64,000 nucleotides of DNA, taken from positions 15,331-79,330 of the forward strand of contig CAZIAH010000003.1 of assembly GCA_964537715.1 (NCBI GenBank), in the 5' to 3' direction. Each line of letters starts with the position of its first letter. Position 1 is the first letter of the stretch. Under the pieces are notes generated by a model that saw only the letters and a list, made by a program, of their open reading frames with translations, ran no database searches and was not told where the DNA came from. Both the position numbers and the translations under genes were made by a program. The DNA comes from an uncultured bacterium (GTDB lineage: Bacteria > Zhuqueibacterota > QNDG01 > DSAB01). Shown here in pieces: positions 1 to 20,118 of the stretch.

Positions 1-18
1 ACAATTATCCTGCTGATT

Positions 19-519
19 GTGTTGAACCTCTCAACTTTGGCCATCATATGGACGGGTCATAAAAGACAAAGTGGACCACCACCTCAAAAAAATATTCCGC
101 CTTCGAAACGTACTTTGGAATTATTGCAGCAGGAGCTCGGTTTTTCAGATGAGCAGATTCAGAAATACGACCAACTGAGACGAGAGCATGCTCAGCAAAC
201 ACAGCATCTGATCCATGATCTCCGCAGGTTAAAAATGCAGATGATGAATGAGATTCTGACGGATCATCCGGACTCAATAACAGTGGCAGAAACAGCTGCC
301 CTAATCGGCAATAAGCAAGCCGAAATTGAAAAATTGACCTTTGAACATTTTTTAGATTTAAAAAAATTATGCGGTGAAAATCAGGTAAAAAAATTACAGG
401 TATTGGTAGATGCGTTTTTTCAGAAAAATCCACCGCCAGAACAGGAAATGCAAGCCAGACAGTTCAGACCGGGTAAACCGATGAGACCACCGCCGGGGCT
501 TCCTGAAAACCCGAATTGA
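19..519 (+). CDS. Spy/CpxP (LTXXQ)-family periplasmic protein, probably 5'-partial. The reading frame is open back to base 1 and encodes a hydrophobic signal/TM-like stretch (TIILLIVLNLSTLAIIW).
   Basis: Helical, charged sequence with repeated L-x-x-E/Q motifs (LELLQQELGFSDEQIQKY, LTFEHFLDLKKL) and a Pro-rich tail. The called start is GTG at 19, but the frame has no upstream stop within the window. A paralog follows at 710. Confidence 0.45.
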   Translation: MLNLSTLAIIWTGHKRQSGPPPQKNIPPSKRTLELLQQELGFSDEQIQKYDQLRREHAQQTQHLIHDLRRLKMQMMNEILTDHPDSITVAETAALIGNKQAEIEKLTFEHFLDLKKLCGENQVKKLQVLVDAFFQKNPPPEQEMQARQFRPGKPMRPPPGLPENPN

Positions 520-543
520 AGATAGTGATTTTTCCATGAATCA

Positions 544-583
544 AAAACCCTTTTCCGAACCATCGCGAAAGGGTTTTTTATTT
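544..583 (+). terminator. Rho-independent terminator after the first Spy/CpxP-like gene
   Basis: aaaaccctttt ... aaagggtttt stem of about 10 bp with a 14-nt loop, followed by tttttatttct. Confidence 0.5.
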
Positions 584-659
584 CTGCATCTGGCAATATC
601 CACTGAATCCTCACTTTTAAAAAATCAAAATCTCACCGCAAGATTTTTTCATGAACAAC

Positions 660-676
660 GTCTCAATGATTGAGAC
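660..676. promoter_or_regulatory. Perfect 17-bp palindrome GTCTCAAT-G-ATTGAGAC about 35 bp upstream of the second Spy/CpxP-like gene; candidate operator
   Basis: Read directly from the sequence: gtctcaat g attgagac. It lies between a terminator and the RBS (aaggagacgatcATG). Confidence 0.35.
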
Positions 677-709: not shown

Positions 710-1177
710 ATGAAAAAGCAATCCCAAATTTTAGCTGCCTTCATTGTCATTGTATTTTGTGTTTTTGGAAGTTCGGGGAAACTGTATTCTCAACCACCAC
801 AAGGCCGCAGACCACCCATGCTCCCGGATTCCATCCATATTGTACAAAGGGTGAACGAATTGGCAAACACCCTGTCTCTTTCTGATCAGCAAAAGGCAGG
901 CATCCTGAAACTGCATTTTGAACATTTTGGCCAAATCAAGCAAATGATGCTGAAAGAAAAGGAACATCAGGAAAAAATGCGAAGCGCTCACGATCAACTC
1001 AAAGAACAATTTGAAGCCTCTATCTTACGTTTATTAACCGATGAACAAAAGACAAAATTTGAAGAATTCTCCAAAACACATCGACCACACCATCCTGAGG
1101 GAAATCACAACCCTGATCATATGGAACCTGGCTTAAGAACGCCGAAGAAAGGAGCACCCAATGAAAATCAGGAATAG
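710..1177 (+). CDS. Spy/CpxP/ZraP-like periplasmic protein (LTXXQ motif family) with signal peptide and Pro/His-rich tail
   Basis: N-terminal signal peptide (MKKQSQILAAFIVIVFCVFG), motifs LSLSDQQKAGILKLHFEHF and LLTDEQKTKFEEF typical of Spy/CpxP helices, and an RBS aaaaggagacgatcATG. Confidence 0.45.
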   Translation: MKKQSQILAAFIVIVFCVFGSSGKLYSQPPQGRRPPMLPDSIHIVQRVNELANTLSLSDQQKAGILKLHFEHFGQIKQMMLKEKEHQEKMRSAHDQLKEQFEASILRLLTDEQKTKFEEFSKTHRPHHPEGNHNPDHMEPGLRTPKKGAPNENQE

Positions 1178-4100
1178 TTTATCCGTCATTATCGCTGTAT
1201 TGTTGTACACCACGATTATTTTGGAAAAACCTGTTCAGGCCCAGGGTGTTGTTCCGCATATCATTGAGAGCATTTCACCGGCCAGTGCCGACGCAGGCAC
1301 ACCCAACCTCACAGTGACCATCACACTGCTAAATCTGGGCACCCCTCCAGTACCCCCATCGGAGGTGACGCCTTCAGGTCTCCGCATCGGAACTCTGGAA
1401 GCCCGATCCATCAGCCGCAGTAATTTGTTGATTACGGCAATCATTGACATCCCTGAAACTGAATCAGGCGGTACAAAAGATGTGGTACTCACATTTCCCG
1501 GACCCAATAATCAAGAGATTGTTTTTACCTTGTCCGGCGGGTTCACAGTGACAGGCAATGACACATCCGACAATCCGGTGATTGTTACTGCGGATACCGG
1601 TGATTATGTCATCGTGGATACGGGTCAGGAAACGTGTTATAATGCCACACAGGCGATCAGCACACCTCGGGTCGGAGAGGACTTTTACGGACAGGATGCA
1701 CAATTCGAAGGGAATCAGCCCAGTTATACCGTCAGCGAGGACGGCCTGACTGTTTATGACAATGTTACCGGTCTCACCTGGACCAGAGGTGCAGACTGGA
1801 ATGGCGATGAAACGGTGGACGTGAACGACAAGTTCACTTATACTGAGGCACTGAATTACGTTTCCGTAATCAACGCTCAGAACTACGGTGATTATAATGA
1901 CTGGCGCCTGCCCAGCATTAAAGAGCTCTATTCCCTGATCGACTACCGTGGCACGGATCCGAGTCCCACCGGGACAAGTGCCTCGGGGTTGGTCCCATTC
2001 ATCAATGACGAGGTCTTCGAGTTCGCGTATGGTGATATATCCGGAGGTGAACGGATCATCGATTCCCAATGGGCTACTACGACGCTCTATGTCAGTACGG
2101 TGATGAATGGCCAGCAGGCCATGTTCGGTGTGAACTTTGCCGACGGGCGAATCAAGGGCTACCCTGCTGACACCAATCCGGGGGGATTTGAGAAGACATT
2201 CTATGTTCGTTTCTGCCGCGGAAATACGGAATATGGGAAAAACAGCTTTACCGATAACGGCGACGGAACCGTAACGGACAGCGCCACCGGATTGATGTGG
2301 TCCCAGTCAGACAACGGCGCTGGCGTGAACTGGGAGGATGCCCTATCCTGGGTCCAGCAGATGAACGATGTAAATTACCTTGGATATAATGACTGGCGTC
2401 TGCCCAACGCCAAGGAACTTCAGAGCCTGGTGGACTATACACGCTCACCCGATACGCACGGCACGGCGGCCATCGATCCACTCTTCAATGCCACGCAGAT
2501 CACGAACGAGGCCGGCCAGCCGGACTACCCATTCTATTGGTCCAGCACGACTTTCCTTCGCTTCGACGGCAGTGCTGACCGAGCCGTCTACGTGGCTTTC
2601 GGAAGGGGCTTGGGTTCGATGGACGGTACGACTGTGATCGACGTACACGGAGCCGGATGCCAGCGAAGCGATTCCAAAGACGGCAACCCGGACGATTATC
2701 CCAATTGGGGCTTCGGCCCCCAGGGCGACGTGCAGCGTGTTTACAATTATGTTCGCCTGGTCCGTACAGTGGAGATATCTGAAACAAGTGAGGACGATTC
2801 CACGGATGACGGCAACGTAACGCTCTTTGCACCTATGGGCAATACGAATACTTATCTCATTGATGCAGACGACGATATCGTACACTCCTGGGAAAGCGAC
2901 TATACTCCTGCCCTGTCGGCCTACCTGTTGGATGACCGATCCCTGCTGCGAACGGCTTCTCCGGGGCGGAATGCGAACAGTGTCTTCGGAAGTGAGGGCG
3001 GTGCCGGAGGCATCGTGGAACAATACGACTGGGAAGGAAACAAAACCTGGGAATTCGAATACAACAGCAGCGACTACCTGCTTCATCACGATATCGAAGC
3101 CCTGCCCAGCGGCAACATTCTGATGATCGCCTGGGAATACAAAAGCGAAACCGAAGCCATCGAAGCGGGCCGGAATCCTTCCCTGCTTTCCGACGGCGAA
3201 CTGTGGCCGGACAAGATTATCGAGGTTGAGCCCGATGGATCATCCGGCGGTACGATCGTGTGGGAATGGCACGTCTGGGATCATTTGATTCAGGACTACG
3301 ACGCTTCCAAAGCCAATTACGGTACCGTCTCCGATCATCCGGAAAAGATCGACATCAACTTTGTGCTGCATCAGCCCAACGCCGACTGGACGCACATCAA
3401 TGGTGTGGATTACAACGCTGATCTGGACCAAATTCTGCTCACGGCACACAACTTCAGCGAGATCTGGATCATTGATCACAATACCACAACCACTGAGGCC
3501 GCGGGTGCGGCAGGCGATCTGCTCTACCGCTGGGGCAATCCTCAGACCTATGGCAGGGGCAACAGTAATGATCAACAACTCTTTGTTCCCCACGACGGTC
3601 AATGGATCGATGCCGGATGTCCCGGTGAGGATGACATTCTTATCTTCAACAACGGACAAAACCGCCAAGACGGAAACTACTCCACTGTGGATGAGATCAC
3701 ACCGCCGTGGAACGGCAGTCGCTACACAATAAACAACGGCTCCGCGTACGAACCGTTCGCGCCCGACTGGACGTACAAAGGCGATCCGGCCTCTTCCTTT
3801 TATGCGGATCACATTTCCGGTGCCCAGCGTCTTCCCGACGGCAGCACCTTGATCTGCGATGGCCCGGCCGGTAAATTCTTTGAAGTCACATCCTCTGGCG
3901 AAACCGTTTGGGAATATACCAACCCGTTCTCTTTCACCACGCCGCAGGGAGAAAGCAACGAAGTGTTTCGTGCAACCTGTTACAACCTAAATGATTTGAA
4001 CACCGGCGTGGAAGATGATATGTATCATGAAAGCGGCTCGACGGGACTTCCTGAAGCATTCACGCTCAATCAGAATTATCCCAATCCCTTTAACCCAACC

Positions 4101-4331
4101 ACTTCCATTACCTATTCACTGACCAAGTCAGCCAATATTGAGCTGGCCGTGTTCAATCTCCAGGGTCAGCGGATTAAGACCCTGATGAGCGGAATGCAGG
4201 CTGCCGGGGATTACGAAGTCACCTGGGACGGAACCAACGAGAATGGAATGAAAGTCGCTTCCGGCATCTATATTTATCAATTGATTACTGGCAATCAGCG
4301 GACGGTAAAAAAAATGACCCTGATGAAATAA
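1161..4331 (+). CDS. Secreted multidomain T9SS cargo: signal peptide, two DUF1566 (Lcl C-terminal) domains, an arylsulfotransferase (ASST)-like beta-propeller, and a Por/T9SS C-terminal sorting domain
   Basis: Two copies of the DUF1566 signature (YGDYNDWRLPSIKELYSLIDY; YLGYNDWRLPNAKELQSLVDY). ASST-like motifs (LLHHDIEALPSGNILMIAWE, WEWHVWDHL, DWTHINGVDYNADLDQILLTAHNFSEIWIIDH). C-terminus LNQNYPNPFNPTTSITYSL...IYIYQL...KKMTLMK matches the T9SS CTD. Confidence 0.65.
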   Translation: MKIRNSLSVIIAVLLYTTIILEKPVQAQGVVPHIIESISPASADAGTPNLTVTITLLNLGTPPVPPSEVTPSGLRIGTLEARSISRSNLLITAIIDIPETESGGTKDVVLTFPGPNNQEIVFTLSGGFTVTGNDTSDNPVIVTADTGDYVIVDTGQETCYNATQAISTPRVGEDFYGQDAQFEGNQPSYTVSEDGLTVYDNVTGLTWTRGADWNGDETVDVNDKFTYTEALNYVSVINAQNYGDYNDWRLPSIKELYSLIDYRGTDPSPTGTSASGLVPFINDEVFEFAYGDISGGERIIDSQWATTTLYVSTVMNGQQAMFGVNFADGRIKGYPADTNPGGFEKTFYVRFCRGNTEYGKNSFTDNGDGTVTDSATGLMWSQSDNGAGVNWEDALSWVQQMNDVNYLGYNDWRLPNAKELQSLVDYTRSPDTHGTAAIDPLFNATQITNEAGQPDYPFYWSSTTFLRFDGSADRAVYVAFGRGLGSMDGTTVIDVHGAGCQRSDSKDGNPDDYPNWGFGPQGDVQRVYNYVRLVRTVEISETSEDDSTDDGNVTLFAPMGNTNTYLIDADDDIVHSWESDYTPALSAYLLDDRSLLRTASPGRNANSVFGSEGGAGGIVEQYDWEGNKTWEFEYNSSDYLLHHDIEALPSGNILMIAWEYKSETEAIEAGRNPSLLSDGELWPDKIIEVEPDGSSGGTIVWEWHVWDHLIQDYDASKANYGTVSDHPEKIDINFVLHQPNADWTHINGVDYNADLDQILLTAHNFSEIWIIDHNTTTTEAAGAAGDLLYRWGNPQTYGRGNSNDQQLFVPHDGQWIDAGCPGEDDILIFNNGQNRQDGNYSTVDEITPPWNGSRYTINNGSAYEPFAPDWTYKGDPASSFYADHISGAQRLPDGSTLICDGPAGKFFEVTSSGETVWEYTNPFSFTTPQGESNEVFRATCYNLNDLNTGVEDDMYHESGSTGLPEAFTLNQNYPNPFNPTTSITYSLTKSANIELAVFNLQGQRIKTLMSGMQAAGDYEVTWDGTNENGMKVASGIYIYQLITGNQRTVKKMTLMK

Positions 4332-4684
4332 GGAAACTCTTCCGGGAATTTTCCATCGGAATGATCAGTCGTACAATTTATGATGCCATTCCTGAAAATA
4401 ATGTGGATTTTCACAAACTGTCTTGTTATATTGATTTGTGCAGTCTGAAAAGTAATAAAAGACTGCCTTTGCGGGATATCCTGATTATTCATTCAATTTT
4501 CCAAGAGTATATCGGGATGTCAAAGCAATCTATGTGAAACTCATGAGGTTGCTTTTCCGTCAAGACGGAACCGCAACGGCAGGGTTCATTCTCAATTTTT
4601 TAGACTGCGATCACTTGCCATATACTGCTATATACAAAAACCAATGTATTTTAAAGCTTCTAAATAATCATAAGGATATAACGA

Positions 4685-6184
4685 ATGGCAATCAATACCT
4701 CTTCCGAAAGAAAACTGTTTTGGTATGCATTCATTTCCTTTACGATCTGGTCGGGAATCATATTTTTTTCAAACCACTATTTGCCCATGGTCGATTTGCC
4801 TCAACACGCCAGTCAGATTTCTATTTGGATGAATATGAATAATTCTGACTATCCCTTTTCAAATCTATTTGAATACAATTGGTTTACCCCTTACCTCGTC
4901 GGATACAGTATCATTCGCGTTCTGACTTTTTTAATGCCTGTCCATATGGCTATTAAAATTGTTATTTTTATAGCATCAATCGCTTTTGTGTACGCATGCT
5001 GTTTGCTGCTTGACATTCATTCAAAAATACAATGGGCGGCGCTGCTGGCTTTTCCGTTAATTTTTAATTTTAACTTCTACTGGGGTTTCGTAAACTACAT
5101 TGTCGCCATTCCAATTGGCTTATTTTTTATTGTCATTGCCAAAAATTTTATCCGTGATTTAACACCAAGAAAGGGATTCATATTATTTCTTCTATCCATC
5201 CTTTTGTTTTTTGCACATGTCTTAATTTATCTATACTGCATGTTCCTTATATTTTTAATGCACCTTATTTATTTTCGTGGATGGAAACAGACAGGCAGAT
5301 TGATACTTACTTTCCTCCCTTCATTCATCATCACAATTCTGTGGTATTTGTATCAAATAAAGTATACTCCACAAGTCACTTTACACCCACAATTCCTATA
5401 CGGCTTATTCAGACTAATTAAATATCCTTCTATTTTGCTTGGCAGCATGCACAAGCAACTCATCCAACAAATAGTGATTACAATATTATTGTTTATAACA
5501 CCACTAATCGCATTTAAAAAAATTCAAGGACGATTGTCTGCATTATTTATAGCAACATTATTCTTTTATTTCTTTTTACCCCATCAAGCCTTTGGGACCT
5601 ATTTCCTTTATCAAAGATTTGCCATATTTATTTTTCCGTTCTATCTTTTATCCATCCAATCGGAGTACAAGAACAGTCGCCATAAGTTACTGCAAATCAT
5701 ATGCATCCTCCTCATCAATGTCTATTGGCTGCATCAAACGGATAAACAATTCACTTTATTTAATTATGAGGCAGGTTATTATACGCAGATTGAAAAGGAA
5801 ATCCCATCACACAAAAGGGTGTTATCCATGATATATCTCAGTGATTCTATTTTTTTAGATCATGGCCCCTACTTTCTTCACTTCCCAACATGGTATGCAT
5901 CCAACAGATCGGGGGTTGTGGACTTCTCCTTTGCCTATTTCTTTCCTGAACTGATCCATTATAAAAAAGGACTTTACCCAAAAGCCGATCCATATTTTGT
6001 ATGGCATCCCAATATCTTCAAATGGGAGGATCATAGTTTCTATGATTATTATGTTTTAAAATTACCTTATGGTCATGAAGCGATGACAGAATTCCCATAC
6101 CCGAATGACAACAAACTTGTATTGGTAAAAAACATAGAAAATGCATGGTATCTATTTAAGAGGATTGAAAATGAAGAAGAATAA
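4685..6184 (+). CDS. Polytopic membrane protein (about 11-12 TM helices) with a roughly 130-aa C-terminal soluble domain; candidate GT-C-fold polyprenyl-phosphate-dependent glycosyltransferase
   Basis: Highly hydrophobic F/I/L-rich ORF in a low-GC island. The architecture (TM bundle plus a C-terminal periplasmic-like domain) and the adjacent GtrB-like GT2 gene suggest a GT-C partner. No family-specific motif was recognised. Confidence 0.45.
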   Translation: MAINTSSERKLFWYAFISFTIWSGIIFFSNHYLPMVDLPQHASQISIWMNMNNSDYPFSNLFEYNWFTPYLVGYSIIRVLTFLMPVHMAIKIVIFIASIAFVYACCLLLDIHSKIQWAALLAFPLIFNFNFYWGFVNYIVAIPIGLFFIVIAKNFIRDLTPRKGFILFLLSILLFFAHVLIYLYCMFLIFLMHLIYFRGWKQTGRLILTFLPSFIITILWYLYQIKYTPQVTLHPQFLYGLFRLIKYPSILLGSMHKQLIQQIVITILLFITPLIAFKKIQGRLSALFIATLFFYFFLPHQAFGTYFLYQRFAIFIFPFYLLSIQSEYKNSRHKLLQIICILLINVYWLHQTDKQFTLFNYEAGYYTQIEKEIPSHKRVLSMIYLSDSIFLDHGPYFLHFPTWYASNRSGVVDFSFAYFFPELIHYKKGLYPKADPYFVWHPNIFKWEDHSFYDYYVLKLPYGHEAMTEFPYPNDNKLVLVKNIENAWYLFKRIENEEE

Positions 6185-7118
6185 ATGTGTTTCAATAATC
6201 ATCCCGGTTTATAATGAAGAAGACTTAATCCGGGAAACACACGACCGGATCAAATCGACTCTCGAAAAAATAAAAACGGTCAATTATGAACTCATCTTTG
6301 TTAACGATGGAAGTACGGATCACTCATTACAAATATTAAAACAATTGTATGATCATGACAGTAAGATGGTTCTTATCAATTTTTCAAAGAATTTTGGTCA
6401 TCAAAACGCATTAACAGCAGGGCTGGATTATGCCGATGGTGATGCGATTGTGTTTATCGATGCGGATCTGCAAGATCCTCCCGAAGTCATTCAAGAAATG
6501 ATTGAAAAATGGCAATCAGGGTATGATGTTGTTTATGGCGTTCGTATACACAGAAAGGGCGAAAACATATTTAAAAAAACAACTGCGTCCTTTTTTTATA
6601 GAATGTTAAACTTTTTGTCAGATACAAAAATTCCGGTGGATACCGGCGATTTCCGATTAATGAGCCGTAAGGTTGTTGAAGCTGTAAAAAAACTCGAAGA
6701 AAGAGACCGTTATCTTCGTGGCATGGTCGCATGGGTCGGTTTTCCTCAAGCATCAGTGTATTATGAAAGAAATCAGCGCATTTCGGGAAAAACAAAATAT
6801 TCCTTCAAAAAAATGTCTTCGCTTGCATTGAATGCGATTATCTCTTTTTCAACAAAACCTTTAAAAATCGCGGTCTTTATCGGTATACTCATGTCCTCAT
6901 TTAGTTTTATCTATCTTATTTATATTTTATATATCAGATTTGTCCTAAAAACAGCCATTTTAGGTTGGGCATCAATTGCCTTGTTAGTGACTTTGTTCTC
7001 AGGCATTAACCTTATTTTTTTAGGAATCATTGGCAATTACATTGGTAGTATTGTTCATGAAGTTAAAAAACGTCCAATTTATTTAATCGAAAGCATTTTA
7101 CCGAAGAGTACAAAATGA
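6171..7118 (+). CDS. GT2 polyprenyl-phosphate sugar synthase (GtrB/ArnC/DPM1-like) with two C-terminal TM helices
   Basis: VSIIIPVYNEE...FVNDGSTD...DADLQDPP motifs of GT-A/GT2, a C-terminal membrane anchor, and an ATG at 6171 preceded by agga (the ORF track began at the upstream ATG 6141). It overlaps the upstream gene by 14 bp. Confidence 0.85.
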   Translation: MKKNKCVSIIIPVYNEEDLIRETHDRIKSTLEKIKTVNYELIFVNDGSTDHSLQILKQLYDHDSKMVLINFSKNFGHQNALTAGLDYADGDAIVFIDADLQDPPEVIQEMIEKWQSGYDVVYGVRIHRKGENIFKKTTASFFYRMLNFLSDTKIPVDTGDFRLMSRKVVEAVKKLEERDRYLRGMVAWVGFPQASVYYERNQRISGKTKYSFKKMSSLALNAIISFSTKPLKIAVFIGILMSSFSFIYLIYILYIRFVLKTAILGWASIALLVTLFSGINLIFLGIIGNYIGSIVHEVKKRPIYLIESILPKSTK

Positions 7119-7930
7119 CAATGAATGATTCAGAACAAAGGGAACGTCTCACTATAGAAAAATCATTTCATGACTCATTGACGGACATCATTGAGTCAGA
7201 ACAATTATGTATCTATGAGAATTTTGAATCGATCATTGCTCAGGAAAACGCATCCATTTTAAAATGGTTTAATAACCTAAAAAACAAAAAAATTCTTGAT
7301 TTGGGCTGCGGTTTGGGAGAAGCCTCGCTTTTTTTTAACAGTTTAGATGCTGAAGTGTATTCACAGGATATCTCTTTGCAACAATTAATAAAATTAAAAA
7401 AGAATGCGATCGATTACAACGCTCCTATCTCCTTAAATCTCTCCGATGCCAGTGCTTTACCGTTTAAAAATAGTACATTTGATTTTGTATACGGGAATGG
7501 TGTTTTACATCATATTGATATTCCTACTGCAACCAATGAAATCAAACGGATACTCAAACCAAACGGGAAGGCTGCGTTCATCGATCCTTTACCCTACAAT
7601 CCAGCAATCAAGATATATCGGAATATGGCTCGAAAATTTAGAAGTTCAACAGAAAAACCCCTTTCCAAAGCACAGATCAAATGGATTTGTAAACAGTTTT
7701 CAAATAGTCAACATGAAGTTTTCTGGTTAACCTCATTGATTGTCTTTTTTTATATGTATTTTATCGAAAAAGTTCACCCCTCCGAAGATCGTTACTGGAA
7801 ACGATTGTATAGAAACGAAAAAAAATATTCAACATTTTTAAAACCTTTCATCTGCATTGATAAATATTTAAAGAAAATTCCCGGCCTATCATGGTTGGCT
7901 TGGAATGTTGTCATCCTGGTTAAAAAATAA
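7115..7930 (+). CDS. Class I SAM-dependent methyltransferase
   Basis: Motif I ILDLGCGLGEAS, motif post-I, Methyltransf_11/25-like. 4-bp overlap with the GT2 gene. Confidence 0.75.
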   Translation: MTMNDSEQRERLTIEKSFHDSLTDIIESEQLCIYENFESIIAQENASILKWFNNLKNKKILDLGCGLGEASLFFNSLDAEVYSQDISLQQLIKLKKNAIDYNAPISLNLSDASALPFKNSTFDFVYGNGVLHHIDIPTATNEIKRILKPNGKAAFIDPLPYNPAIKIYRNMARKFRSSTEKPLSKAQIKWICKQFSNSQHEVFWLTSLIVFFYMYFIEKVHPSEDRYWKRLYRNEKKYSTFLKPFICIDKYLKKIPGLSWLAWNVVILVKK

Positions 7931-7956: not shown

Positions 7957-10900
7957 TTACTTCATGAGTACCATTTTCTTCACATCGACAAATCGTTTCT
8001 CTTTTTCTTCTCTGCTTTTTATTTCAATCCGATAAATATAAATTCCCGTTGCGACTTTTTGACCGGAACCATTCCGGCCGTCCCAGATTACATGATGATA
8101 ACCGGCTGGCTTCATCTCTTGAACAAACTCACGGACTACCTGTCCTTTTATATCATAAATCACCAATTTCACTTCGGACGGCTGGGGCAGATGATACTCG
8201 ATTCTGGTTTCGGGATTGAATGGATTGGGATAGTTTTGAAGCAGGGCATACTCTTCGGGGATCCCCGATCTCTGATCCACAACACCTACTCCTTCTGAAA
8301 TATGAACACCAATCGGTCTGGAATACAATGTTAAATCTGTAACAATGGTATTCGTGATCTGACATACATAAGATCCGGAATCGGATTCTGTTGCCGATTC
8401 TATCACATAAGCTAAACTGTCCGCATCCGTAACTTCTTCACCATTTTTGAACCATTGATACACATTGGCCGTACCACCTACTTCGACTGATAAGATTATA
8501 GAAGAACCGACGTCTATCGTTGTATCCTGCTTTTCCCCCACACTATCCTGGGGCCAATAACTAAAATTGGGAATTCGAATATTGGGCTCGATATCTTCGA
8601 ATGTCAGCCGGTTGTCTTCTGCTGTCAGATCCGTCAATGTAGGAATAGAAGATAAATCCGGCAAACCGGTAAACTGATTTGAATTGATATAGAATCTTTG
8701 CAGTATGGTTAAATCTGTAAACTGACTTGGTATACTGCCTTCTAAATGATTCTGATGAATGTAACAAAATTGAAGTGCTGTACATTGACTGATTTCCTCA
8801 GGAACCGGTCCTGTGAACTGATTATAAAAAAGTTCTAATTGATACAATTGACTCAGGTCTCCGATCTCGGAAGGTATTGAACCTGAAAGCTGGTTGTTCG
8901 CCAATCTCAATATTCTTAATTTAGAGAGATTACCAATTTCCTGAGGAATTTCACCGGTTAACTGGTTTCCGTCCAGATATAAAAAGTATAACTCCGTCAA
9001 ATTGCATATCTCAGGGGGGATGGAATCTGAGAGTTGATTGTTATTGAGATACAATCCTACCAGATTGGTGCAATTCCCGATCTCAGGAGGAATGGGACCA
9101 TTCAATTCATTTCTGTCCAGATAAAAATCTGATAAATTGGGTAATTTGCCAATCTCAGGAGGTATCGATCCGGTGAACTGATTATTGCCCATATAGAGAT
9201 ATTCCACACTGGCCAAATTTCCAATCTCTGGTGGAATCTCACCTACTAACTGGTTATCGGAAAGATATAAATAGGTGACTGCTGTTAAGTTCTCAATCTC
9301 AGGAGGAACGGTTCCATTAAGATTGTTGTTATCCAAATCTACAATTTTAACACGTTCATCTTCAACTGTGATACCGAACCAGGTATCAAGCGAACCTGCC
9401 AGCCAGTTTGTGTGATTTGTCCAGTTTGTACCGTCGGTGCTATCATAAAGTGTAACAAGTGCGAGAGAATCTTGTTCGATATTTCCAGGAATTTTAACTG
9501 TTATAGTTGTTGTATGAGAATAGAGAGTTAATTCAGTAGCCACACTATTTGTGATTTGACAGACATAACTGCCCTCATCTTCAATGGTTGCGAAATTGAT
9601 TGTATATGTATCGGAAACAGCTCCGGAAAGGATGGTCTGATCGTGCAGCCACTGATACTGATTGTTTACGCCTCCCACATCCACAATAAGTGGGAAACTG
9701 GCACCGTAATCAATCGTTGTATCCTGGGCTTCTCCGACACTATCTTGGGGTGCATAGAAAAAAGCGGGAATGGTGATATTGGGTTCAATATCCTCGAATG
9801 TGAATCGATTATCTTGTGCGTAAAGAGTATGTAATTCCGGAAGTAAAGAAAGATTCGGCAGTCCATCCAATTGGTTGTAATTAATACGAAGCGTTTTCAG
9901 TGCAATAAGATTGGTAAATGCATCCGGAACCGCACCAGCCAATTGATTGTCCGTTAAATTGATATAAGTCGCTTTTATCAGATTGCCCATTTCTGAAGGG
10001 ATCGAACCTGTCAATTCATTACCGTCAAGATAGCATTGTTTGACTTCAATTAGATTGCCGATTTCTTCGGGGATCGAACCATCAAGAGCATTGTTGTCTA
10101 AAATCAAATGGGTAAGACTGGTTAGATTACCAATTGCAGGCGGAATAGAACCAGTAAGCTGGTTGTTATTCAGATACAGCGATGTCAATTGGATTAGATT
10201 ACCAATCTCAGCTGGAATCGTATCTCCCAGTTGATTGTTGTCCAAATCCAAAGACGTCAGTTCGGTCAAATCGCCAATTTCAGGAGGAATGATTCCGTCT
10301 AAATTGTTAAACGCTAAAACGATTCGACTGATTCTATCGTCCGAAACCGTAATCCCGTACCATGTGAGTACCGAACCCGAGAGCCAGTTATCATTGTTTG
10401 TCCAATGAGCTCCATCCGTACTGTTATACAACGCAACGAGAGCAAGCGAATCTTGCTCAAATTCCGGATTTGCACCAACCACTGTTACATGAATTGGACG
10501 ACTGTAAATTGTCAGTCCTGGAACCACGGTATTGGTAACACGACAGATATAATCACCTGCATCAGCAGACGAGACATAACCAATTGTATACTCATCCGAT
10601 GTGGCTCCCGGAATCATCGAATACCCGTTGAACCACTGATATTGATTACTGGCTCCTCCGACACTTACCAAAAAGGAGAGGCTAGTCCCATAGGTTACGG
10701 TTGTATCCTTTTCTGTTCCGACACTATTCTGGGGAGTGTAATCAAAATTGGAAATCATAATATTCGGTTCCAGATCCTCAAATGTGAACCGGTTATTATA
10801 GACAGAAAAGTAGCTCAAATCTGGCAAAGAGGACAGATCCGGCAATTCATCAAGCTGATTATAATCGACATAAAAAGACGTCAGCTTCTCTAGATTTGTA

Positions 10901-12030
10901 AACGTACCTGGCACCGCACCTGTTAACTGATTGTTGCCGAGATCTAAAAACATCATATTCGGTAAAAATCCCATTTCCTCCGGAATAGCTCCTGAAAATT
11001 GATTATGCGCAAGATAGAGCGACGCAAGTTGCGCTAATTTTCCAATCTCCGCTGGAATGGAATCAGAAAGCTGATTCAAACTGATATTTAAATAGGACAA
11101 ATTGGTCAAATCCCCAATTTCAGGAGGAATCGGACCTTCCAACTGATTGTCATTGAGATACAAGGATAACAAAGTTGTCAGATTCCCGATATCAGCAGGT
11201 ATTGTACCTTCAAATTGATTATAACTCAAATCGAGTGTTTGAATACTTACCAGATCACCAATCTCTGGAGGAATAGGACCGGAAAACTGGTTGTTATAGA
11301 AATAACAGTATATCAAATCATCTAGATTGCCAATCTCTGGAGGAATAGGGCTATTAAGCTGGTTATACGATAAATCCAGCACCATCAGATTGCTCAGGTT
11401 GCCAATTTCCTGTGGTATTTGACCTGTAAGCTGATTGCTATTTAAATAGATATCTTTGCATTGATCAAGATTCCCTATTTCAGGAGGAATGGAACCTGTG
11501 AGCTGATTTTCTGAAAGAATAAGTGTGATTAAATTGACAATATCCCCTATCCATAGCGGAATCGTTCCTGAAATCTGATTATCTCTCAATTCAAGGTGTG
11601 ACAAACGTGTTAAATTCTGGATTCCTGCAGGAATAGAATCGCCGAATTGGTTGCAATTCAAATACAAATTATTCAAGTAAATGAGATTACCAATTTCTTC
11701 AGGAATAGGTCCACTGAGTTGATTTAGACTGAGGTCCAGATAGGTCAGTGTATCCAGATCACCGATCTCTGATGGGAGAGTCCCCGTCAAGTTATTTCCG
11801 TGTAATTTTATTGAGGTCACCCGTTCATTCTCCACATCAATACCATACCAATCGGCCACCGGTCCAGTAAGCCAGTTATCTTTATTGGTCCAGTTGGTTC
11901 CATCGGTACTATCGTACAAAGCGACAAGTGCCAGAGAATCCTGCTCGAGAACTTGCCCTATTATATCGGAAGGATTTAAAAGAAGAATAACAACGAAAGT
12001 GGACAGCCAAGTAAAAGATTGCTTTCTCAT
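7957..12030 (-). CDS. Giant secreted leucine-rich-repeat protein. Three tandem modules, each an LRRNT-like cap plus about 10-12 plant-specific-type 24-residue LRRs plus an Ig-like domain, ending in a T9SS C-terminal sorting domain.
   Basis: Signal peptide. Repeats match LxxLxxLxLxxNxLxGxIPxEIGNL (e.g. LTYLDLSLNQLSGPIPEEIGNL). Caps EQDSLALVALYDSTDGTNWTNKDNWL...WYGI occur three times. Ig-like GDY-C-TN motifs (AGDYICRVTNTVV; GSYVCQITNS). CTD LLQNYPNPFNPETRIEYHL...IYIYRI. Strong RBS aaaaggagggggaaATG. Confidence 0.85.
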   Translation of the reverse strand: MRKQSFTWLSTFVVILLLNPSDIIGQVLEQDSLALVALYDSTDGTNWTNKDNWLTGPVADWYGIDVENERVTSIKLHGNNLTGTLPSEIGDLDTLTYLDLSLNQLSGPIPEEIGNLIYLNNLYLNCNQFGDSIPAGIQNLTRLSHLELRDNQISGTIPLWIGDIVNLITLILSENQLTGSIPPEIGNLDQCKDIYLNSNQLTGQIPQEIGNLSNLMVLDLSYNQLNSPIPPEIGNLDDLIYCYFYNNQFSGPIPPEIGDLVSIQTLDLSYNQFEGTIPADIGNLTTLLSLYLNDNQLEGPIPPEIGDLTNLSYLNISLNQLSDSIPAEIGKLAQLASLYLAHNQFSGAIPEEMGFLPNMMFLDLGNNQLTGAVPGTFTNLEKLTSFYVDYNQLDELPDLSSLPDLSYFSVYNNRFTFEDLEPNIMISNFDYTPQNSVGTEKDTTVTYGTSLSFLVSVGGASNQYQWFNGYSMIPGATSDEYTIGYVSSADAGDYICRVTNTVVPGLTIYSRPIHVTVVGANPEFEQDSLALVALYNSTDGAHWTNNDNWLSGSVLTWYGITVSDDRISRIVLAFNNLDGIIPPEIGDLTELTSLDLDNNQLGDTIPAEIGNLIQLTSLYLNNNQLTGSIPPAIGNLTSLTHLILDNNALDGSIPEEIGNLIEVKQCYLDGNELTGSIPSEMGNLIKATYINLTDNQLAGAVPDAFTNLIALKTLRINYNQLDGLPNLSLLPELHTLYAQDNRFTFEDIEPNITIPAFFYAPQDSVGEAQDTTIDYGASFPLIVDVGGVNNQYQWLHDQTILSGAVSDTYTINFATIEDEGSYVCQITNSVATELTLYSHTTTITVKIPGNIEQDSLALVTLYDSTDGTNWTNHTNWLAGSLDTWFGITVEDERVKIVDLDNNNLNGTVPPEIENLTAVTYLYLSDNQLVGEIPPEIGNLASVEYLYMGNNQFTGSIPPEIGKLPNLSDFYLDRNELNGPIPPEIGNCTNLVGLYLNNNQLSDSIPPEICNLTELYFLYLDGNQLTGEIPQEIGNLSKLRILRLANNQLSGSIPSEIGDLSQLYQLELFYNQFTGPVPEEISQCTALQFCYIHQNHLEGSIPSQFTDLTILQRFYINSNQFTGLPDLSSIPTLTDLTAEDNRLTFEDIEPNIRIPNFSYWPQDSVGEKQDTTIDVGSSIILSVEVGGTANVYQWFKNGEEVTDADSLAYVIESATESDSGSYVCQITNTIVTDLTLYSRPIGVHISEGVGVVDQRSGIPEEYALLQNYPNPFNPETRIEYHLPQPSEVKLVIYDIKGQVVREFVQEMKPAGYHHVIWDGRNGSGQKVATGIYIYRIEIKSREEKEKRFVDVKKMVLMK

Positions 12031-13186: not shown

Positions 13187-14089
13187 CTATCCCCGGACAA
13201 AAATATTTTTGATCACATGTCCGGCTATCTGGGGATTCTCCTTCATTCTCCGCATGCAATAGCCGTACCACTGCTCCCCGTATGGTACATAGATCCTGAG
13301 CCCATGTCCGTCGGCCACCAATTCATTTCTCATATTTTCAGTCACGCCTAAAAGCATCTGAAACTCGTATTGGAATTTGGGAACCCGGTATTCATTCAGC
13401 ATCTTGAGCGACCGGTTGACCAGCACCCGGTCGTGGGTCGCGATACCCGCATAGGATTTCGATTCGAAAAGCATCTTGACCAGTGCCATGAAATTATCAC
13501 GTATCTTTTCCCGATCATTGAAAGCGATTTACGGGGATTCATCGTAAATGCCCTTGCAGACCCGGATATTGGCAATACCGTCTTTGATCAACTGTTCGAC
13601 ATCGCCCTGACTGCGTTTCATATAGGCCTGGATTACCGTTCCCACATTCTTGTAATCCTTCCGCAGTTTTCGATAGATAGCGAGTGTATCATCCGTGCAC
13701 GTGGAATCTTCCATGTCGATCCGGACGAAATTTTTGACTGCTTCTGCTCTCTGGACAATTTCTTTCACATGCTCGTAGCATCGGTTCTTATCTAAACGAA
13801 GTCCGAGCTGTGTCAACTTCAGGGACAACGTTGCCTCAAGATTATTTTTCTGGATCGCATCCAGAACTTCGAGACACTGCATTCTGGCAATGTTCGCTTC
13901 CTCAAGGCTCGTAATATCTTCTCCAAGCACATCTATGGTCACCTGACACCCGATTTCGTTCAAGTCCTGTGTCTTGGCCACTGCACTGGACAGAGTTTTA
14001 CCGGCAATGTATCGGCGAGAGAAAATCCATATAAATGACTTCGGGAAAACCGGCATGACGCCGACCACCAGACGACTAAACCATTTCAT
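13187..14089 (-). pseudogene. putA: Proline dehydrogenase (PutA/ProDH family) interrupted by a single in-frame TAA at 13529-13531. The N-part (14089..13532) and C-part (13528..13187) are in the same frame.
   Basis: N-part ...IRVCKGIYDESP* is followed in frame by IAFNDREKIRDNF MALVKMLFESKSYAGIATHD...GLRIYVPYGEQWYGYCMRRMKENP (ProDH C-terminus). The likely true start is the ATG at 14089, ATGA-overlapping the upstream GT2 stop. Confidence 0.6.
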
Positions 14090-15030
14090 GAGCGTATTCC
14101 TTCCAACGGTTCTGTAATGGTTTGTTTTTTTAATGTCAATTGATAGCCTCGATAAATATGATAAAAGACAAGAAAATGAATAACGCTCCGGCGCATTGGA
14201 CGAGGAACTATCGGAATGATTGCACGGCTCCATTTTGCGAGCCAGGATTGTAAGAACAGCCGCAAAAATCGATTTTGAAACGAACCGGAAATCAACCGGT
14301 CGAATCGAAAAAGCTGCGTGAATTCGGGATATTTTTTTTGAATATAGGGAAGATTGATGCTTCCAAATTCTTCCATCTGACGAAAGTAAGTGGACAAATC
14401 TTTATTCAATTCTGAATATCCGACCGCCGATACATTGAAAATCACGGGGAGCCGGAATGTTTTCCACAGACGATAGGCAAATTCGGTATCGCCTCCACCA
14501 TAGGTGACCATGCTTCCATCCTGGCCATCAACCTGAACAAAGTAGTGACTTTCAAAAGCGACATTTTGCGTGATCAGATAGTAGGCAGGAATCTCATCTC
14601 CATTCTTATATTTATTCTTTCCCCGGTGTTGGAGATAATCGGAAAGGTAACTGGTTTTCGAATCGGTATAGACAACATCACCCAAAGAAATACAATTTTT
14701 GTTCTTCAGAAGTGTGAGATGTTTTTCGAGTAAATCCGGTGCAGGACGTATATCCGAATCGAACATAACGAGGTATTTCGACGTAATGTGTCCGAGCGCT
14801 AGATTCCTGGCTGGATTTCTTCCCTTGCGTTTCCCATCGGGATGGGTGAGCACTTTAAATTCGAACGGATAACGGGTTTCTGACAGATACTCCAGCGTTC
14901 CGTCAGTCGAACCATCCACACAGATCAGCAGACGGAAATCTTTCACAGTCTGCGCTTCAAATCCGGCCAAACAGCCTTCCAGTTCATCCAGATTGTTGTA
15001 GGTGGCTATGATAATATCAAACAGTGCCAT
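14086..15030 (-). CDS. Glycosyltransferase family 2
   Basis: DIIIATYNNLDELEGCLAGFEAQT...LICVDGSTDGT GT-A motifs. Confidence 0.8.
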   Translation of the reverse strand: MALFDIIIATYNNLDELEGCLAGFEAQTVKDFRLLICVDGSTDGTLEYLSETRYPFEFKVLTHPDGKRKGRNPARNLALGHITSKYLVMFDSDIRPAPDLLEKHLTLLKNKNCISLGDVVYTDSKTSYLSDYLQHRGKNKYKNGDEIPAYYLITQNVAFESHYFVQVDGQDGSMVTYGGGDTEFAYRLWKTFRLPVIFNVSAVGYSELNKDLSTYFRQMEEFGSINLPYIQKKYPEFTQLFRFDRLISGSFQNRFLRLFLQSWLAKWSRAIIPIVPRPMRRSVIHFLVFYHIYRGYQLTLKKQTITEPLEGIRS

Positions 15031-15123
15031 ATTACTCGATGGTTAAAAAAACAGCGTCCCTGATAGTCAGGATTACTCCAATTCTTGCTTCATCCTGAGC
15101 GCAGTCGAAGGATGATAAGTCGA

Positions 15124-16212
15124 TCAAACAAAATGATTCCCCAATGTCTTCCGATATACATCCAGCATCCTTTCCGCAACCCGGTTCCAGAGAAAATTTC
15201 TTTGAATGTGCTTTTTCAATGTATCTGTTTTCTGGCTATTTAAAGCCTTCTCGATTGCGGTACGAATAGATCGAACCGAATAGGGATTGACGTATTCTGC
15301 TTGATCCTCAAAATACTCCTGCGTGCCGCCGTGTGGTGTAATTACGATGTTCGCTCCGGCAAGGCCGGCCTCGAGTGCCGCGATTCCCGGCGTTTCGAAT
15401 TTGGACGGTAAAGCAAACACCCTGCATGCTGCATATGCCGACGCCAGCAGCGGAGAATCGTGATCGAGTCCATCGATGAGAATCAGATTTTTATTTTTTT
15501 TTGCCTCACTCAGACACAATTCGGCCTCCCGGGAAGACACGACCTGACCGATGATCACGGCAGGATGATCGATCCGGCTCAGCGCCCGAATCAGGGAAAG
15601 CACATTTTTTCGATCCGGACCGATATGCCCGACATTGAGAATAAAATCCCTGACTCCATATTTTTTTTGAAACAGTGCCGGATCAGCCGATAGAAATTGT
15701 TCCGACACTCCGTTTGGAATCCAGTGAATCTTCTCTTTCGGAACGCACAATCCCTTTTCGATCAAACGGGCTTCCGCCATCGTGTTCGGCATGACGGCTT
15801 CGGCCCAATGACAGATATCGCGGGGAAAATGCCAGTCCCACCAAATTCCCCGAATCATCTTTCGCATTCCTCGGTAAAGCACATTCGCGGAACGGATCAG
15901 ACCGGCGGAATGACGGCTATAAAAAATCGGCATGACGGCAAACTTGATGTTCCGATTTTTCAAATCCCTTGCAAGGTGAAAATTTCCCAGATTTGCCCCG
16001 AACAACTGGATGAGATCGCAATCCAGAACCTTCTCCTTTTCATCCCACATATCGAAATATCCGATTTCGACGCCCATGCGTCTTAGATGCGCCTTCGTTT
16101 CGACAATGGCCACATGGGGGCCGCCGTGCACAAACATCACGGATTGATAGCATGCAAAATTAATTTTCATGATTTCATTTTTCCGAAAATGTTTTCTATT
16201 CTGTAAATCCAA
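15124..16212 (-). CDS. Glycosyltransferase family 4 (GT-B, group 1)
   Basis: C-terminal PSKFETPGIAALEAGLAGANIVITPHGGTQEY E-x7-E-type motif. Confidence 0.75.
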   Translation of the reverse strand: MDLQNRKHFRKNEIMKINFACYQSVMFVHGGPHVAIVETKAHLRRMGVEIGYFDMWDEKEKVLDCDLIQLFGANLGNFHLARDLKNRNIKFAVMPIFYSRHSAGLIRSANVLYRGMRKMIRGIWWDWHFPRDICHWAEAVMPNTMAEARLIEKGLCVPKEKIHWIPNGVSEQFLSADPALFQKKYGVRDFILNVGHIGPDRKNVLSLIRALSRIDHPAVIIGQVVSSREAELCLSEAKKNKNLILIDGLDHDSPLLASAYAACRVFALPSKFETPGIAALEAGLAGANIVITPHGGTQEYFEDQAEYVNPYSVRSIRTAIEKALNSQKTDTLKKHIQRNFLWNRVAERMLDVYRKTLGNHFV

Positions 16213-19126: not shown

Positions 19127-20118
19127 GCAATCCCCAAAATCGCTTTCCTCAACCCATCCACTCTGCGTTGAAGGGGAAATTCATTGATAATGCGTTGACG
19201 GGCCAGATGTCCTTGTGAACCATTCATTTTTAAAGCGCGTTTCAAACCATCGACAAGCGCTTCCATGTCACCTAAAGGAACGATAAAACCCGTATCTCCG
19301 ATCGCCGTCGGAATGCCGTCCACATTAGTACCCACTGGAATGCAGCCGCACGCCATCGCCTCACACAGGGTATTGGGCAATCCTTCGGAACGGCTCGGCT
19401 GGCAAAAAACAGCGGCACGCTGATAATAGTCGCGCAATTCCGTCTGGGTCATTCTGGGCAGCAACGTCACATTTTCTGGTAATTGAAAACCCGCATTCTC
19501 CAACAGTTTGTTCTCGGCGCCGATAAAGAAAAAAGGAATATCAGACATTCTTTTCGCGGCTTGAAAAAGATAATCAATGCCTTTCTTTTTCAATCGCATT
19601 TCCGTATCAGAATGACCGACAGTCAAAATTATCTTTTCTTTCCGAAGCCCCGGTTCCCAAAAATAGGTATCAAACCCGAAAGGTAAATATTGGATATTCT
19701 CACCACTATAATTTGCAAAACATTTGGCTTTTTCTTTGAGTGAAGGTGCGACAACCAAAATCAAATCGGCTTTTGGAAAAGTACAGGTTAAAAGTTTGGA
19801 TTTCCAAGGAGTCAGCCAGATTCCATAATCAATTTCCGCCAGCGCCTCGGCATCCACACCGGCAAGCACGATAATGGATCGCTTTCGGAAAATTCTGGCT
19901 AATAAAACAGCGACAGCGCTATAAACCGAACCAAACCAACAAAACGCCACATCACAAAAAAGAATATTCCAGAAAATAAGAAAAACGGCTTTCAATCCAC
20001 TTGCGGTGAAACGGTTGACATTAAAATATTTTTTTAAAATTTGATAGTCTTTCTCAATGAACGAGGCATGAATTGTTGAAAAAAAGAAAACGCGTTTTTT
20101 CTTCTGTGTTTCCGACAT
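19117..20118 (-). CDS. Glycosyltransferase family 4 (GT-B)
   Basis: EGLPNTLCEAMACGCIPVGTNVDGIPTAIGDTGFIV motif. Confidence 0.75.
   Translation of the reverse strand: MSETQKKKRVFFFSTIHASFIEKDYQILKKYFNVNRFTASGLKAVFLIFWNILFCDVAFCWFGSVYSAVAVLLARIFRKRSIIVLAGVDAEALAEIDYGIWLTPWKSKLLTCTFPKADLILVVAPSLKEKAKCFANYSGENIQYLPFGFDTYFWEPGLRKEKIILTVGHSDTEMRLKKKGIDYLFQAAKRMSDIPFFFIGAENKLLENAGFQLPENVTLLPRMTQTELRDYYQRAAVFCQPSRSEGLPNTLCEAMACGCIPVGTNVDGIPTAIGDTGFIVPLGDMEALVDGLKRALKMNGSQGHLARQRIINEFPLQRRVDGLRKAILGIACE

Follow-up and report, generated by a model that had tools for sequence, protein, structure and literature searches.

The gene at 1161..4331 on the plus strand of a 64,000-nucleotide stretch of DNA from an uncultured bacterium (GTDB lineage Bacteria; Zhuqueibacterota; QNDG01; DSAB01; GenBank assembly GCA_964537715.1, contig CAZIAH010000003.1, positions 15,331 to 79,330; the whole stretch is called the window below) raises the question of what a secreted protein does with a lectin-like module fused to an enzyme-like beta-propeller, and whether the small genes that precede it encode its partners. 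Its product of 1056 amino acids (aa), referred to here as the fusion protein, joins two DUF1566 (Lcl_C) domains, a propeller of the arylsulfate sulfotransferase (ASST) type and a sorting domain of the type IX secretion system (T9SS). Our analysis favours, at about even probability, a regulated, secreted enzyme of the ASST type that would carry a sulfuryl group on His811, possess an Lcl module, be expressed from a promoter of the extracytoplasmic function (ECF) type and have a small periplasmic partner.

The fusion gene is one unbroken open reading frame (ORF) with an AAGGAG box 7 nt 5' of its ATG, and it is reproduced at 100% identity in an independent Logan assembly of a public read set (L001; fetched loci are given L numbers and homologous proteins P numbers). 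Because full-length homologs share its domain order (P0003 at 66% identity and 100% coverage, P0009 to P0011 at 55% identity and 99-100% coverage), a frameshift or an assembly chimera is ruled out, and the intact ORF and these homologs together exclude separate genes split by a frameshift. A reading made from the sequence alone had placed two DUF1566 domains, an ASST-like domain and a T9SS tail on this one gene and had named PF07603, PF05935 and PF18962 among the families to be looked for. These three are matched above their cut-offs: Lcl_C (PF07603) in two stretches (E 9e-48, 161.8 bits against a cut-off of 34.9), Arylsulfotrans (PF05935) at residues 607-906 (E 1e-19, 71.3 bits against 24.2) and Por_Secre_tail (PF18962) at residues 973-1052 of 1056 (28.5 bits against 27). 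The NCBIfam model for the T9SS type A sorting domain, TIGR04183, is also exceeded (37.8 bits against 23), and the Pfam family FlgD_ig matches at E 7e-12. Each of the motifs quoted in that reading was found, namely the repeated DWRLP(S/N)xKEL signature as DWRLPSIKEL at residue 247 and DWRLPNAKEL at 411, HHD at 642, WHVWDH at 703, HINGVDY at 745 and SEIWIIDH at 766.

An AlphaFold2 (AF2) model built on 72 homologs agrees with this division into domains, with a mean predicted local distance difference test (pLDDT) score of 82.7. A signal peptide was read from the sequence at residues 1 to ~28 (...PVQA/QG; 1161..1244, +), where the model has a helix at residues 3-20. It is followed by an all-beta, Ig-like sandwich at residues 31-133 (1251..1559, +; pLDDT 89-97), which has no Pfam match and to which homologous domains are present in many members of the family. 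The two Lcl_C/DUF1566 domains form what we call the Lcl1-Lcl2 cassette, residues ~186-360 and ~361-545 (1716..2795, +; pLDDT mostly 80-96), and the six-bladed propeller of the ASST type spans residues 546-950 (2796..4010, +), with pLDDT above 90 over residues 551-950 and ~27 strands. The type-A sorting domain, residues 966-1056, and the stop codon lie at 4056..4331(+), and are modelled as a beta-sandwich at residues 970-1056 with pLDDT ~90-95. The predicted template modelling score of 0.50 leaves the arrangement of the domains relative to one another undefined. No collagen-like repeats occur in the protein, and no CAZy-type family is matched among its Pfam results.

The mature product is strongly acidic, with a net charge of -93 and an isoelectric point (pI) of 4.15; the second large T9SS cargo of the window is equally acidic and the cytoplasmic proteins of the window are not. 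The same T9SS sorting tail occurs on two further proteins of the window. No T9SS machinery gene was identified in the 64-kb window, and no genome-wide check for the machinery was made. The fusion protein shares with the type-A T9SS cargo of Bacteroidota and related phyla the sorting domain and the layout of a catalytic part, a binding part and a C-terminal domain (CTD), which is also that of the GH88 cargo encoded elsewhere in the window.

How closely does the propeller resemble known sulfotransferases? Its nearest solved folds are Cpz4 and E. coli AssT, at 16-17% identity. The whole 1056-aa protein used as a single query found no match among PDB sequences, and profiles were needed; a 77-member propeller profile matched AssT (3ELQ) at E 2.9e-7 and did not detect Cpz4. 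Full-length AssT was taken from the chromosome of E. coli CFT073, where dsbL and dsbI adjoin it, and was aligned with the propeller profile by hhalign over 307 columns (probability 95.7%, E 1e-8). The active site of AssT comprises His252, His356, Asn358, Arg374, Thr501 and the sulfurylated His436 (PMC13426309). In the alignment His252 corresponds to H642 (3084-3086, +), His356 to H745 (3393-3395, +), Asn358 to N747 (3399-3401, +) and His436, the sulfo-histidine nucleophile, to H811 (3591-3593, +), and all four are invariant in 77 of 77 members of the profile. The expectation of a propeller with conserved histidines at residues ~560-950 was borne out by the AF2 model and the alignments, which give a six-bladed fold of the ASST type with the catalytic histidine kept. 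Judged from these alignments, the propeller truly belongs to the ASST superfamily as a remote branch, which has kept the nucleophile and most of the pocket for the sulfuryl group and has an enlarged active site.

The fusion protein differs from both solved relatives in its setting. With AssT of E. coli CFT073 (PDB 3ELQ/3ETS; PF05935) it has in common the six-bladed propeller and the catalytic histidine, at ~16% identity, but it adds the invariant motifs WEWHVWDH, SEIWIIDH and YRWGNP. AssT is periplasmic, whereas the fusion protein is predicted to be secreted by the T9SS and is fused to lectin-like domains, and the DsbL/DsbI partner genes of AssT are replaced by a small LTXXQ-like gene that is predicted to be co-transcribed. 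Cpz4 of Streptomyces (PDB 9KF4/9KF6) acts in the cytoplasmic pathway to the antibiotic caprazamycin, where a dedicated enzyme makes the donor, and unlike the fusion protein it is without lectin-like or secretion domains.

The sequence-only reading implied that the fusion itself was exceptional. The homologs indicate the opposite, and by their architectures the fusion is common and no peculiarity of this window: a full-length search gave at least 3463 proteins at E<=1e-10, and the best 120 all carry Lcl_C and ASST, with the propeller before the Lcl cassette in 84 and the cassette first in 30. Architectures were counted by phmmer searches with domains taken from the window (E<1e-4). The propeller alone retrieved 1818 clusters at the 50% identity level (E<=1e-30), and relatives are encoded in at least 591 species-level genomes. 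From these we fetched 80 genome loci, which are the best propeller matches of the at least 591 genomes and not a random sample, and in the fetched loci ORFs were called by a simple longest-ORF procedure. The best 80 genomes belong to Melioribacteraceae and other Ignavibacteriota, Chloroflexota, Planctomycetota, Thermodesulfobacteriota, Bacteroidota, KSB1, Verrucomicrobiota and many Thermoplasmatota archaea, with best-segment tblastn identities to the propeller of 48-74%; the best matches to the fusion gene come from metagenome-assembled genomes (MAGs) of Melioribacteraceae. The commonest form in the sampled genomes is a protein of ~550-600 aa that has the propeller without Lcl_C. Database labels of the homologs are 'DUF1566 domain-containing protein' or 'hypothetical', and the literature that we searched holds no description of an Lcl pair with an ASST-like propeller as T9SS cargo. 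Multi-propeller arrays also exist, as seen in five proteins of 1840-3548 aa (P0121, P0124, P0125, P0127 and P0137) with up to six propeller-matching stretches.

Within this large family the Lcl cassette and the propeller travel as units. The order Lcl1 then Lcl2 is kept in 119 of the 129 Lcl_C-bearing proteins among 264 homologs collected. A stand-alone Lcl1-Lcl2 gene adjoins the propeller gene in 10 of the 80 genome loci and also in L083, and in L042 the Lcl-pair gene and the propeller gene overlap by 4 nt. The nearest relative of the core, P0004 (L002), has its modules swapped, with the Lcl cassette C-terminal to the propeller; its identity to the fusion protein is 81% in the Lcl pair and 72% in the propeller, against 46% in the Ig domain and 41% in the CTD. 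Because they are fused in both orders and adjacent as separate genes, there is strong evidence, drawn from gene and domain arrangement, that the cassette and the propeller function together. The GC content at third codon positions is 0.62-0.68 in the Lcl and propeller core, against 0.33-0.54 in 20 other genes of the window, with 0.51 in the Ig domain and 0.56 in the CTD. This contrast, together with the distribution across bacteria and archaea and the recent module swap, suggests that the core was acquired horizontally.

A gene for a 155-aa protein lies directly upstream of the fusion gene, at 710..1177(+); its product has a signal peptide, is predicted to be secreted and all-helical, and contains two LTXXQ-type motifs. 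Since its 3' end overlaps the fusion gene by 17 nt, gene order makes it almost certain that the two are co-transcribed. The Pfam LTXXQ match is below the cut-off (E 0.0025, 18.9 bits against 24.3; E 0.0006-0.0025 in four family members), and homologs of the protein carry precomputed DUF4890 matches. AF2 places helices at residues 41-55, 59-108 and 111-123 (pLDDT 85-92). With this model Foldseek returned nothing below E=1, and the protein had no match among PDB sequences. A histidine-rich C-terminal tail was considered as a conserved metal site and rejected, as it is not conserved in the homologs.

The small gene keeps company with Lcl_C genes elsewhere. Three homologs of the 155-aa protein are detectable, and all three are encoded directly upstream of Lcl_C genes. 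An Ig-Lcl-Lcl gene with 55% identity to the fusion gene follows the small gene in L087, and the two share 4 nt. The order in L083 is the small gene, an Lcl-pair gene, genes for two small LTXXQ-motif proteins, an Lcl-pair gene with a T9SS tail and an ASST-like gene with a T9SS tail, so that the parts fused in the window are here separate neighbouring genes. The two small proteins between the Lcl-pair genes of L083 (positions 1761-3041), of 259 aa (LTDEQ, LSAEQ) and 150 aa (LTESQ, LSDTQ), have no Pfam match and, from their motifs and position, may be further members of the same class of small partners. A DUF4890 gene of more remote similarity occurs near the ortholog in two other loci, two genes before it in L089 and immediately after it in L092.

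Clustering of the neighbours in the 80 genome loci by BLAST found no conserved neighbourhood, and weaker associations appeared in profile searches and Pfam censuses. Pfam LTXXQ proteins account for 3 of 128 immediate neighbours in these loci and are among the few recurrent neighbour families; by a rough estimate that assumes a few such genes per genome, this is at least 10 times the frequency expected by chance. An LTXXQ domain fused in P0086 was considered as a Rosetta-stone link and given little weight, since its match does no more than equal the cut-off (24.3 bits). Other recurrent neighbours of the family are response regulators and histidine kinases. Tll0287-like proteins are encoded directly beside propeller genes in three loci (best E 1e-30), and a 206-aa neighbour of a propeller gene in L023 (8906-9523, -) has a CxxCH motif; its membership of the Tll0287-like group is a guess.

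What lies upstream of the 155-aa gene is a second, separate unit. The 3' part of a gene for a 184-aa membrane-anchored periplasmic protein occupies 1..519(+) (Pfam-matched ORF 19..519) and starts before the window. As L001 shows, it is preceded by genes for an ECF sigma factor of 190 aa and then a single-pass membrane protein of 114 aa, both just outside the window. The 184-aa protein is anchored in the membrane at its N-terminus, and its match to PF13801 (Metal_resist) has E 1.9e-9 in the truncated form and E 4e-10 in full (40.3 bits against a cut-off of 29.2). A profile of four proteins of this type gave, among PDB sequences, a 'VirG-like protein' (5IHF) at E 0.007, Spy (3OEO) at E 0.057 and ZraP at E 2.2, and did not match CnrX; the alignment with Spy covers both LTXXQ motifs of the profile, and the similarity to the solved members is weak. 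Histidines 75, 84 and 128 of the 184-aa protein are common to three of the four aligned proteins and are absent from that of L051. On these profile matches, the designation Spy/CpxP-like holds for the 184-aa protein at the superfamily level, its likeness to the periplasmic LTXXQ proteins Spy, CpxP and ZraP consisting in the weak profile similarity to Spy and ZraP.

The unit is closed at 543..589(+) by a hairpin like that of an intrinsic terminator, with an outer stem of 12 bp and an apical stem of 3 bp followed by the U-run UUUUUUAUUU. The 81-nt region folds with a minimum free energy of -20.6 kcal/mol (z -2.9), and 1 of 200 shuffles is as stable. The claim that the two upstream genes are tandem Spy/CpxP-like paralogs therefore needs revision: the 155-aa and 184-aa proteins are weakly similar (BLASTP E 0.006), their genes are split by the terminator and a promoter-like motif, and the first belongs to an ECF module. 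The suggestion that the small upstream proteins are partners fared better. All detectable homologs of the 155-aa protein are encoded beside Lcl_C genes, and the sigma trio stands upstream of orthologs in L088 (sigma factor 65% identical) and L092 and, in L080 (a Flavobacteriaceae MAG), ahead of a gene for the propeller alone (sigma factor 49% identical). Conserved context thus argues that the upstream small proteins are partners of the fusion protein in this clade.

The promoter-like motif, CCGCAAG-N16-CGTCT, was found by alignment of upstream regions at 636..663(+), 48 nt before the ATG of the 155-aa gene; its end varies as (C/T)GTC(T). The geometry of the motif and its CGTC element resemble those of ECF-type promoters. 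It has a single exact match in the 64-kb window. The 93 fetched loci (~1.15 Mb) contain 11 exact matches, against an expectation of ~1 for the two strands combined; each of the 11 is on the gene strand and none on the opposite one. Of these, ten are located 25-130 nt before a gene of the family or a small companion gene (L001, L002, L003, L087, L088, two sites in L089, two in its duplicate L090, and L093), and the eleventh precedes the gene for a YHYH protein in L080. Inexact forms occur in L004, with one mismatch, and L092, with a 17-nt spacer, and with these the motif is present in nine independent loci. The neighbouring sigma factor would, we infer, be the one that reads it.

A perfect 17-bp palindrome, GTCTCAATGATTGAGAC, which had been pointed out in the sequence-only reading, is indeed present at 660-676(+); it starts inside the -10-like CGTCT element and so overlaps it. 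Its GTCTC...GAGAC arms are found again at the corresponding position in L002 and L088, and in part in L087, and the palindrome may be an operator or a leader stem. The window contains a weak second match, TTCTCAATTTTTTAGAC, at 4589-4605(+), with 3 mismatches, in the spacer between the fusion gene and the next gene. The idea that the palindrome is a repeated operator was rejected, since 6 of 100 shuffles give as many matches and the exact copy is found elsewhere only in L001, which is the same DNA.

The upstream trio and the histidines of the propeller allow another interpretation, namely that a propeller of ASST fold binds metal or acts as a metalloenzyme, possibly in connection with copper, under metal-responsive ECF control in the style of CnrH/CnrY/CnrX. 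The Cnr module consists of a sigma factor, a short anti-sigma factor and a membrane-anchored periplasmic protein (PMC6851896), and the trio here has the same parts in one unit: an ECF sigma factor, a short single-pass protein like an anti-sigma factor and a membrane-anchored, helical periplasmic protein with LTXXQ motifs, which matches the 'Heavy-metal resistance' family PF13801. The family also has six fully invariant histidines and one nearly invariant (642, 643, 704, 708, 745, 773 and 811), together with E702, D707 and E767. The differences from Cnr are the order (sigma factor, anti-sigma factor, sensor), the failure to match CnrX and a DUF4890-like second small protein that has no counterpart in the Cnr system; Cnr controls an efflux pump, whereas the putative controlled gene here encodes a secreted enzyme.

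An unexpected link to copper binding came from L080 (1-5410, CAZZEI010000166.1), in which genes for the sigma factor, anti-sigma factor, PF13801 protein and propeller are followed by those for MbnP and an MbnH-like protein, then the shared motif and the YHYH protein. The propeller gene thus shares an operon-like run with genes for MbnP (E 8e-43) and a di-haem peroxidase like MbnH (E 3e-54), and the motif and the YHYH protein come after them. MbnP and MbnH are a copper-binding protein and its maturase (PMC11951088). YHYH proteins are also encoded directly upstream of the propeller protein in L038 and L057, and in L038 a YHYH region is fused to it. Set against this, MbnP/MbnH occur in 1 of ~90 loci, YHYH proteins, which have no known function and on which a literature search gave nothing useful, occur in 3, and no copper or metal families are among the top recurrent neighbours. 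The PF13801 profile matches Spy and ZraP weakly and CnrX not at all, and the histidine-rich tail of the 155-aa protein is, as said, not conserved. A role in metal binding is in our judgment unlikely. A wider proposal, which we put forward tentatively and think rather unlikely, is that the Lcl cassette and the histidine-rich propeller make up a horizontally mobile extracellular system of many bacterial phyla and Thermoplasmatota, engaged either in sulfuryl transfer or desulfation on polymers or phenolics outside the cell or in a metal-bound, copper-linked function, with a dedicated ECF sigma factor acting through CCGCAAG-N16-CGTCT and a private LTXXQ helper.

The closest known counterpart of the Lcl cassette is Lcl of Legionella pneumophila, whose C-terminal domain has a C-type-lectin-like fold and forms a trimer on a collagen-like stalk, with a lysine-rich basic face that binds sulfated glycosaminoglycans (PMC11162425). 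Both DUF1566 domains of the fusion protein share with it membership of PF07603 (E 9e-48). They differ from Lcl in being two different domains in fixed tandem, in being without a collagen repeat and in carrying net charges of -12 and -16 (pI ~4.2), where charge serves as a proxy for the surface. The Lcl_C region gave, among PDB sequences, chance matches to lignin peroxidase only (E>0.1). On the grounds of charge, an Lcl-like basic surface for sulfated glycans was rejected as a feature of these domains. The sequence-only reading had proposed an activity targeted to a bound ligand; with Lcl basic (PMC11162425) and the domains here strongly acidic, an Lcl-style grip on sulfated polymers is unlikely, and so is a sulfated ligand by analogy with Lcl.

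Characterised DUF1566 proteins are adhesins (Lcl, PMC11162425; leptospiral proteins), and six-bladed propellers are often binding scaffolds. It might then be that the fusion protein is a non-catalytic surface adhesin or binding protein, in which lectin-like domains and propeller do nothing but bind and to which the upstream genes are unrelated; that the sigma trio and LTXXQ genes are missing at most loci of the family would agree with this. The catalytic histidine of ASST and its neighbours are nonetheless invariant across bacteria and archaea at 50-74% overall identity, a pattern like that of an enzyme, and the small gene beside Lcl_C in 3 of 3 homologs and the motif in nine loci argue against chance. 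We regard a purely adhesive protein as very improbable.

We return to the reading that we favour, a regulated, secreted enzyme of the ASST type. The protein would be exported by Sec and then by the T9SS. A donor sulfate ester would sulfurylate His811, with His642, His745 and Asn747 holding the sulfuryl group as in AssT and Cpz4, and a hydroxyl acceptor would then receive the group by a ping-pong mechanism. The Lcl1-Lcl2 cassette, which is genetically linked to the propeller, would be a ligand-binding or partner module and the Ig-like domain a spacer. Transcription would start from the ECF-type promoter-like motif and include the gene for the 155-aa protein, and the adjacent trio of sigma factor, anti-sigma factor and Spy/ZraP-like protein probably controls this motif. 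We infer the sulfotransferase chemistry and its substrates, the role of the Lcl cassette and the chaperone or sensor roles of the small proteins from these comparisons. More speculatively, and by analogy with the DsbL/DsbI pair of AssT (PMC13426309), the 155-aa helper might be a holdase for Lcl-containing cargo in transit through the periplasm.

Several observations weigh against this mechanism. Identity of the propeller to AssT and Cpz4 is as low as 16-17%. The hhalign match begins at residue 202 of the AssT precursor, and the N-terminal beta-sandwich dimerisation domain of AssT is absent; no dsb genes for DsbL/DsbI partners lie near the fusion gene. In a review the DsbL/DsbI-dependent disulfide is described as peculiar to EcAST, with no further AST structure reported (PMC13426309), and for this reason we do not take the dimerisation domain and the disulfide as requirements of the whole superfamily. 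Arg374 of AssT is replaced by histidine (H763), at a position that in the family is H in 48, R in 14, K in 4 and another residue in 11 (basic in 66 of 77), and Thr501 corresponds to I885, which is not conserved, with a conserved S886 adjoining. Ten polar residues, H643, E702, H704, D707, H708, E767, H773, R790, R835 and R890, are invariant in the family without a counterpart in AssT, and because of them the chemistry or substrate may differ from that of AssT. An extracellular sulfotransferase needs an external sulfate-ester donor, and the gene context indicates none; no conserved metabolic neighbour was found in the 80 genome loci. Most loci of the family have neither the sigma trio nor an LTXXQ gene, and the motif is absent from the upstream region of the sigma gene itself in L001, which leaves the pairing of sigma factor and promoter unproven. 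A literature search found no paper that combines DUF1566 with arylsulfotransferase and no member of the family with a reported assay.

Some of these points would suit a different reaction, in which, for example, sulfate esters are hydrolysed or glycans or phenolic polymers undergo some other group transfer or cleavage, with Lcl as a carbohydrate-binding module. The many family-specific invariant residues, the loss of conservation at two of the six active-site positions of AssT and the many invariant tryptophans speak for it, and the layout is like that of the GH88-Big_7-CBM35/6-CTD cargo of the same window. Sulfatase-related neighbours are met occasionally (SGSH_C 2, Alkyl_sulf_C 2, FGE-sulfatase 1), and the hosts include MAGs of Planctomycetota, Verrucomicrobiota, Bacteroidota, Anaerolineae and Thermoplasmatota, of which several come from samples with marine names. 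Such neighbours are rare, however, and sulfatase genes are so numerous in Planctomycetota and Verrucomicrobiota that a few would be expected as neighbours by chance. The lack of a CAZy-type match tells against this alternative too, and the strict conservation of the nucleophilic histidine and three sulfuryl-binding residues fits chemistry of the ASST type. On balance, a different reaction seems to us rather unlikely, though it deserves some weight. Compared with known ASSTs, what is new in the fusion protein is that it is secreted, coupled to Lcl and altered and expanded in its active site, and that in this clade it has a motif, a trio and an LTXXQ partner of its own.

The remainder of the window offers some further observations. 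Directly 3' of the high-GC fusion gene, at 4685-7930(+), is an island of low GC content (0.33-0.35, against 0.44 for the window), so that two segments of opposite composition stand side by side. Its three genes, for a polytopic membrane protein of 499 aa that matches nothing in Pfam, a GT2 glycosyltransferase and a class-I methyltransferase, also follow the fusion gene in L001. Also near the fusion gene, at 7957-12030(-), is a gene for a 1357-aa T9SS cargo (pI 4.05) in which a leucine-rich-repeat block with an Ig domain after it occurs three times, with a Por_Secre_tail/FlgD_ig tail at the end. A cluster for polysaccharide biosynthesis at 13529-20118(-) encodes GT2 and GT4/GT1-type transferases, a polysaccharide deacetylase and a Wzx-type flippase, and within it a short ORF at 13529-14233 has a partial proline-dehydrogenase match. 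Proteins of 1131 aa (42758-46153, -) and 601 aa (50900-52705, -) have no significant Pfam family; the gene for the former is immediately downstream (on the 5' side of the plus strand) of a BamA/Omp85-like gene at 40968-42812, with an overlap of 55 nt. A glycan-degrading cluster at 54726-56858(-), 52948-54600(-) and 57099-59609(+) comprises a GH88 unsaturated glucuronyl hydrolase with Big_7, CBM35/CBM6 and a T9SS tail, a DUF5597/GH35-like protein and a GH3 enzyme with a PA14 insert. From this cluster and its T9SS-tailed GH88 protein it appears that the organism secretes modular, glycan-active enzymes through the T9SS.

For this window alone the fusion gene is one more member of an uncharacterised family. 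The physiological role of aryl sulfotransferases that are independent of 3'-phosphoadenosine-5'-phosphosulfate is described in reviews as unknown (PMC13426309), and the fusion protein belongs to a secreted branch of ASSTs that is far larger than the few periplasmic and cytoplasmic members studied. The coupled Lcl cassette, the promoter motif, the ECF trio and the small periplasmic partner provide handles for its study. If the branch is catalytically active, sulfuryl transfer outside the cell, or a new chemistry on this scaffold, would seem to be a common trait of the uncultured bacteria and archaea, mostly environmental MAGs, in which it is encoded, and the family might supply robust, cofactor-free enzymes for biocatalytic sulfation.

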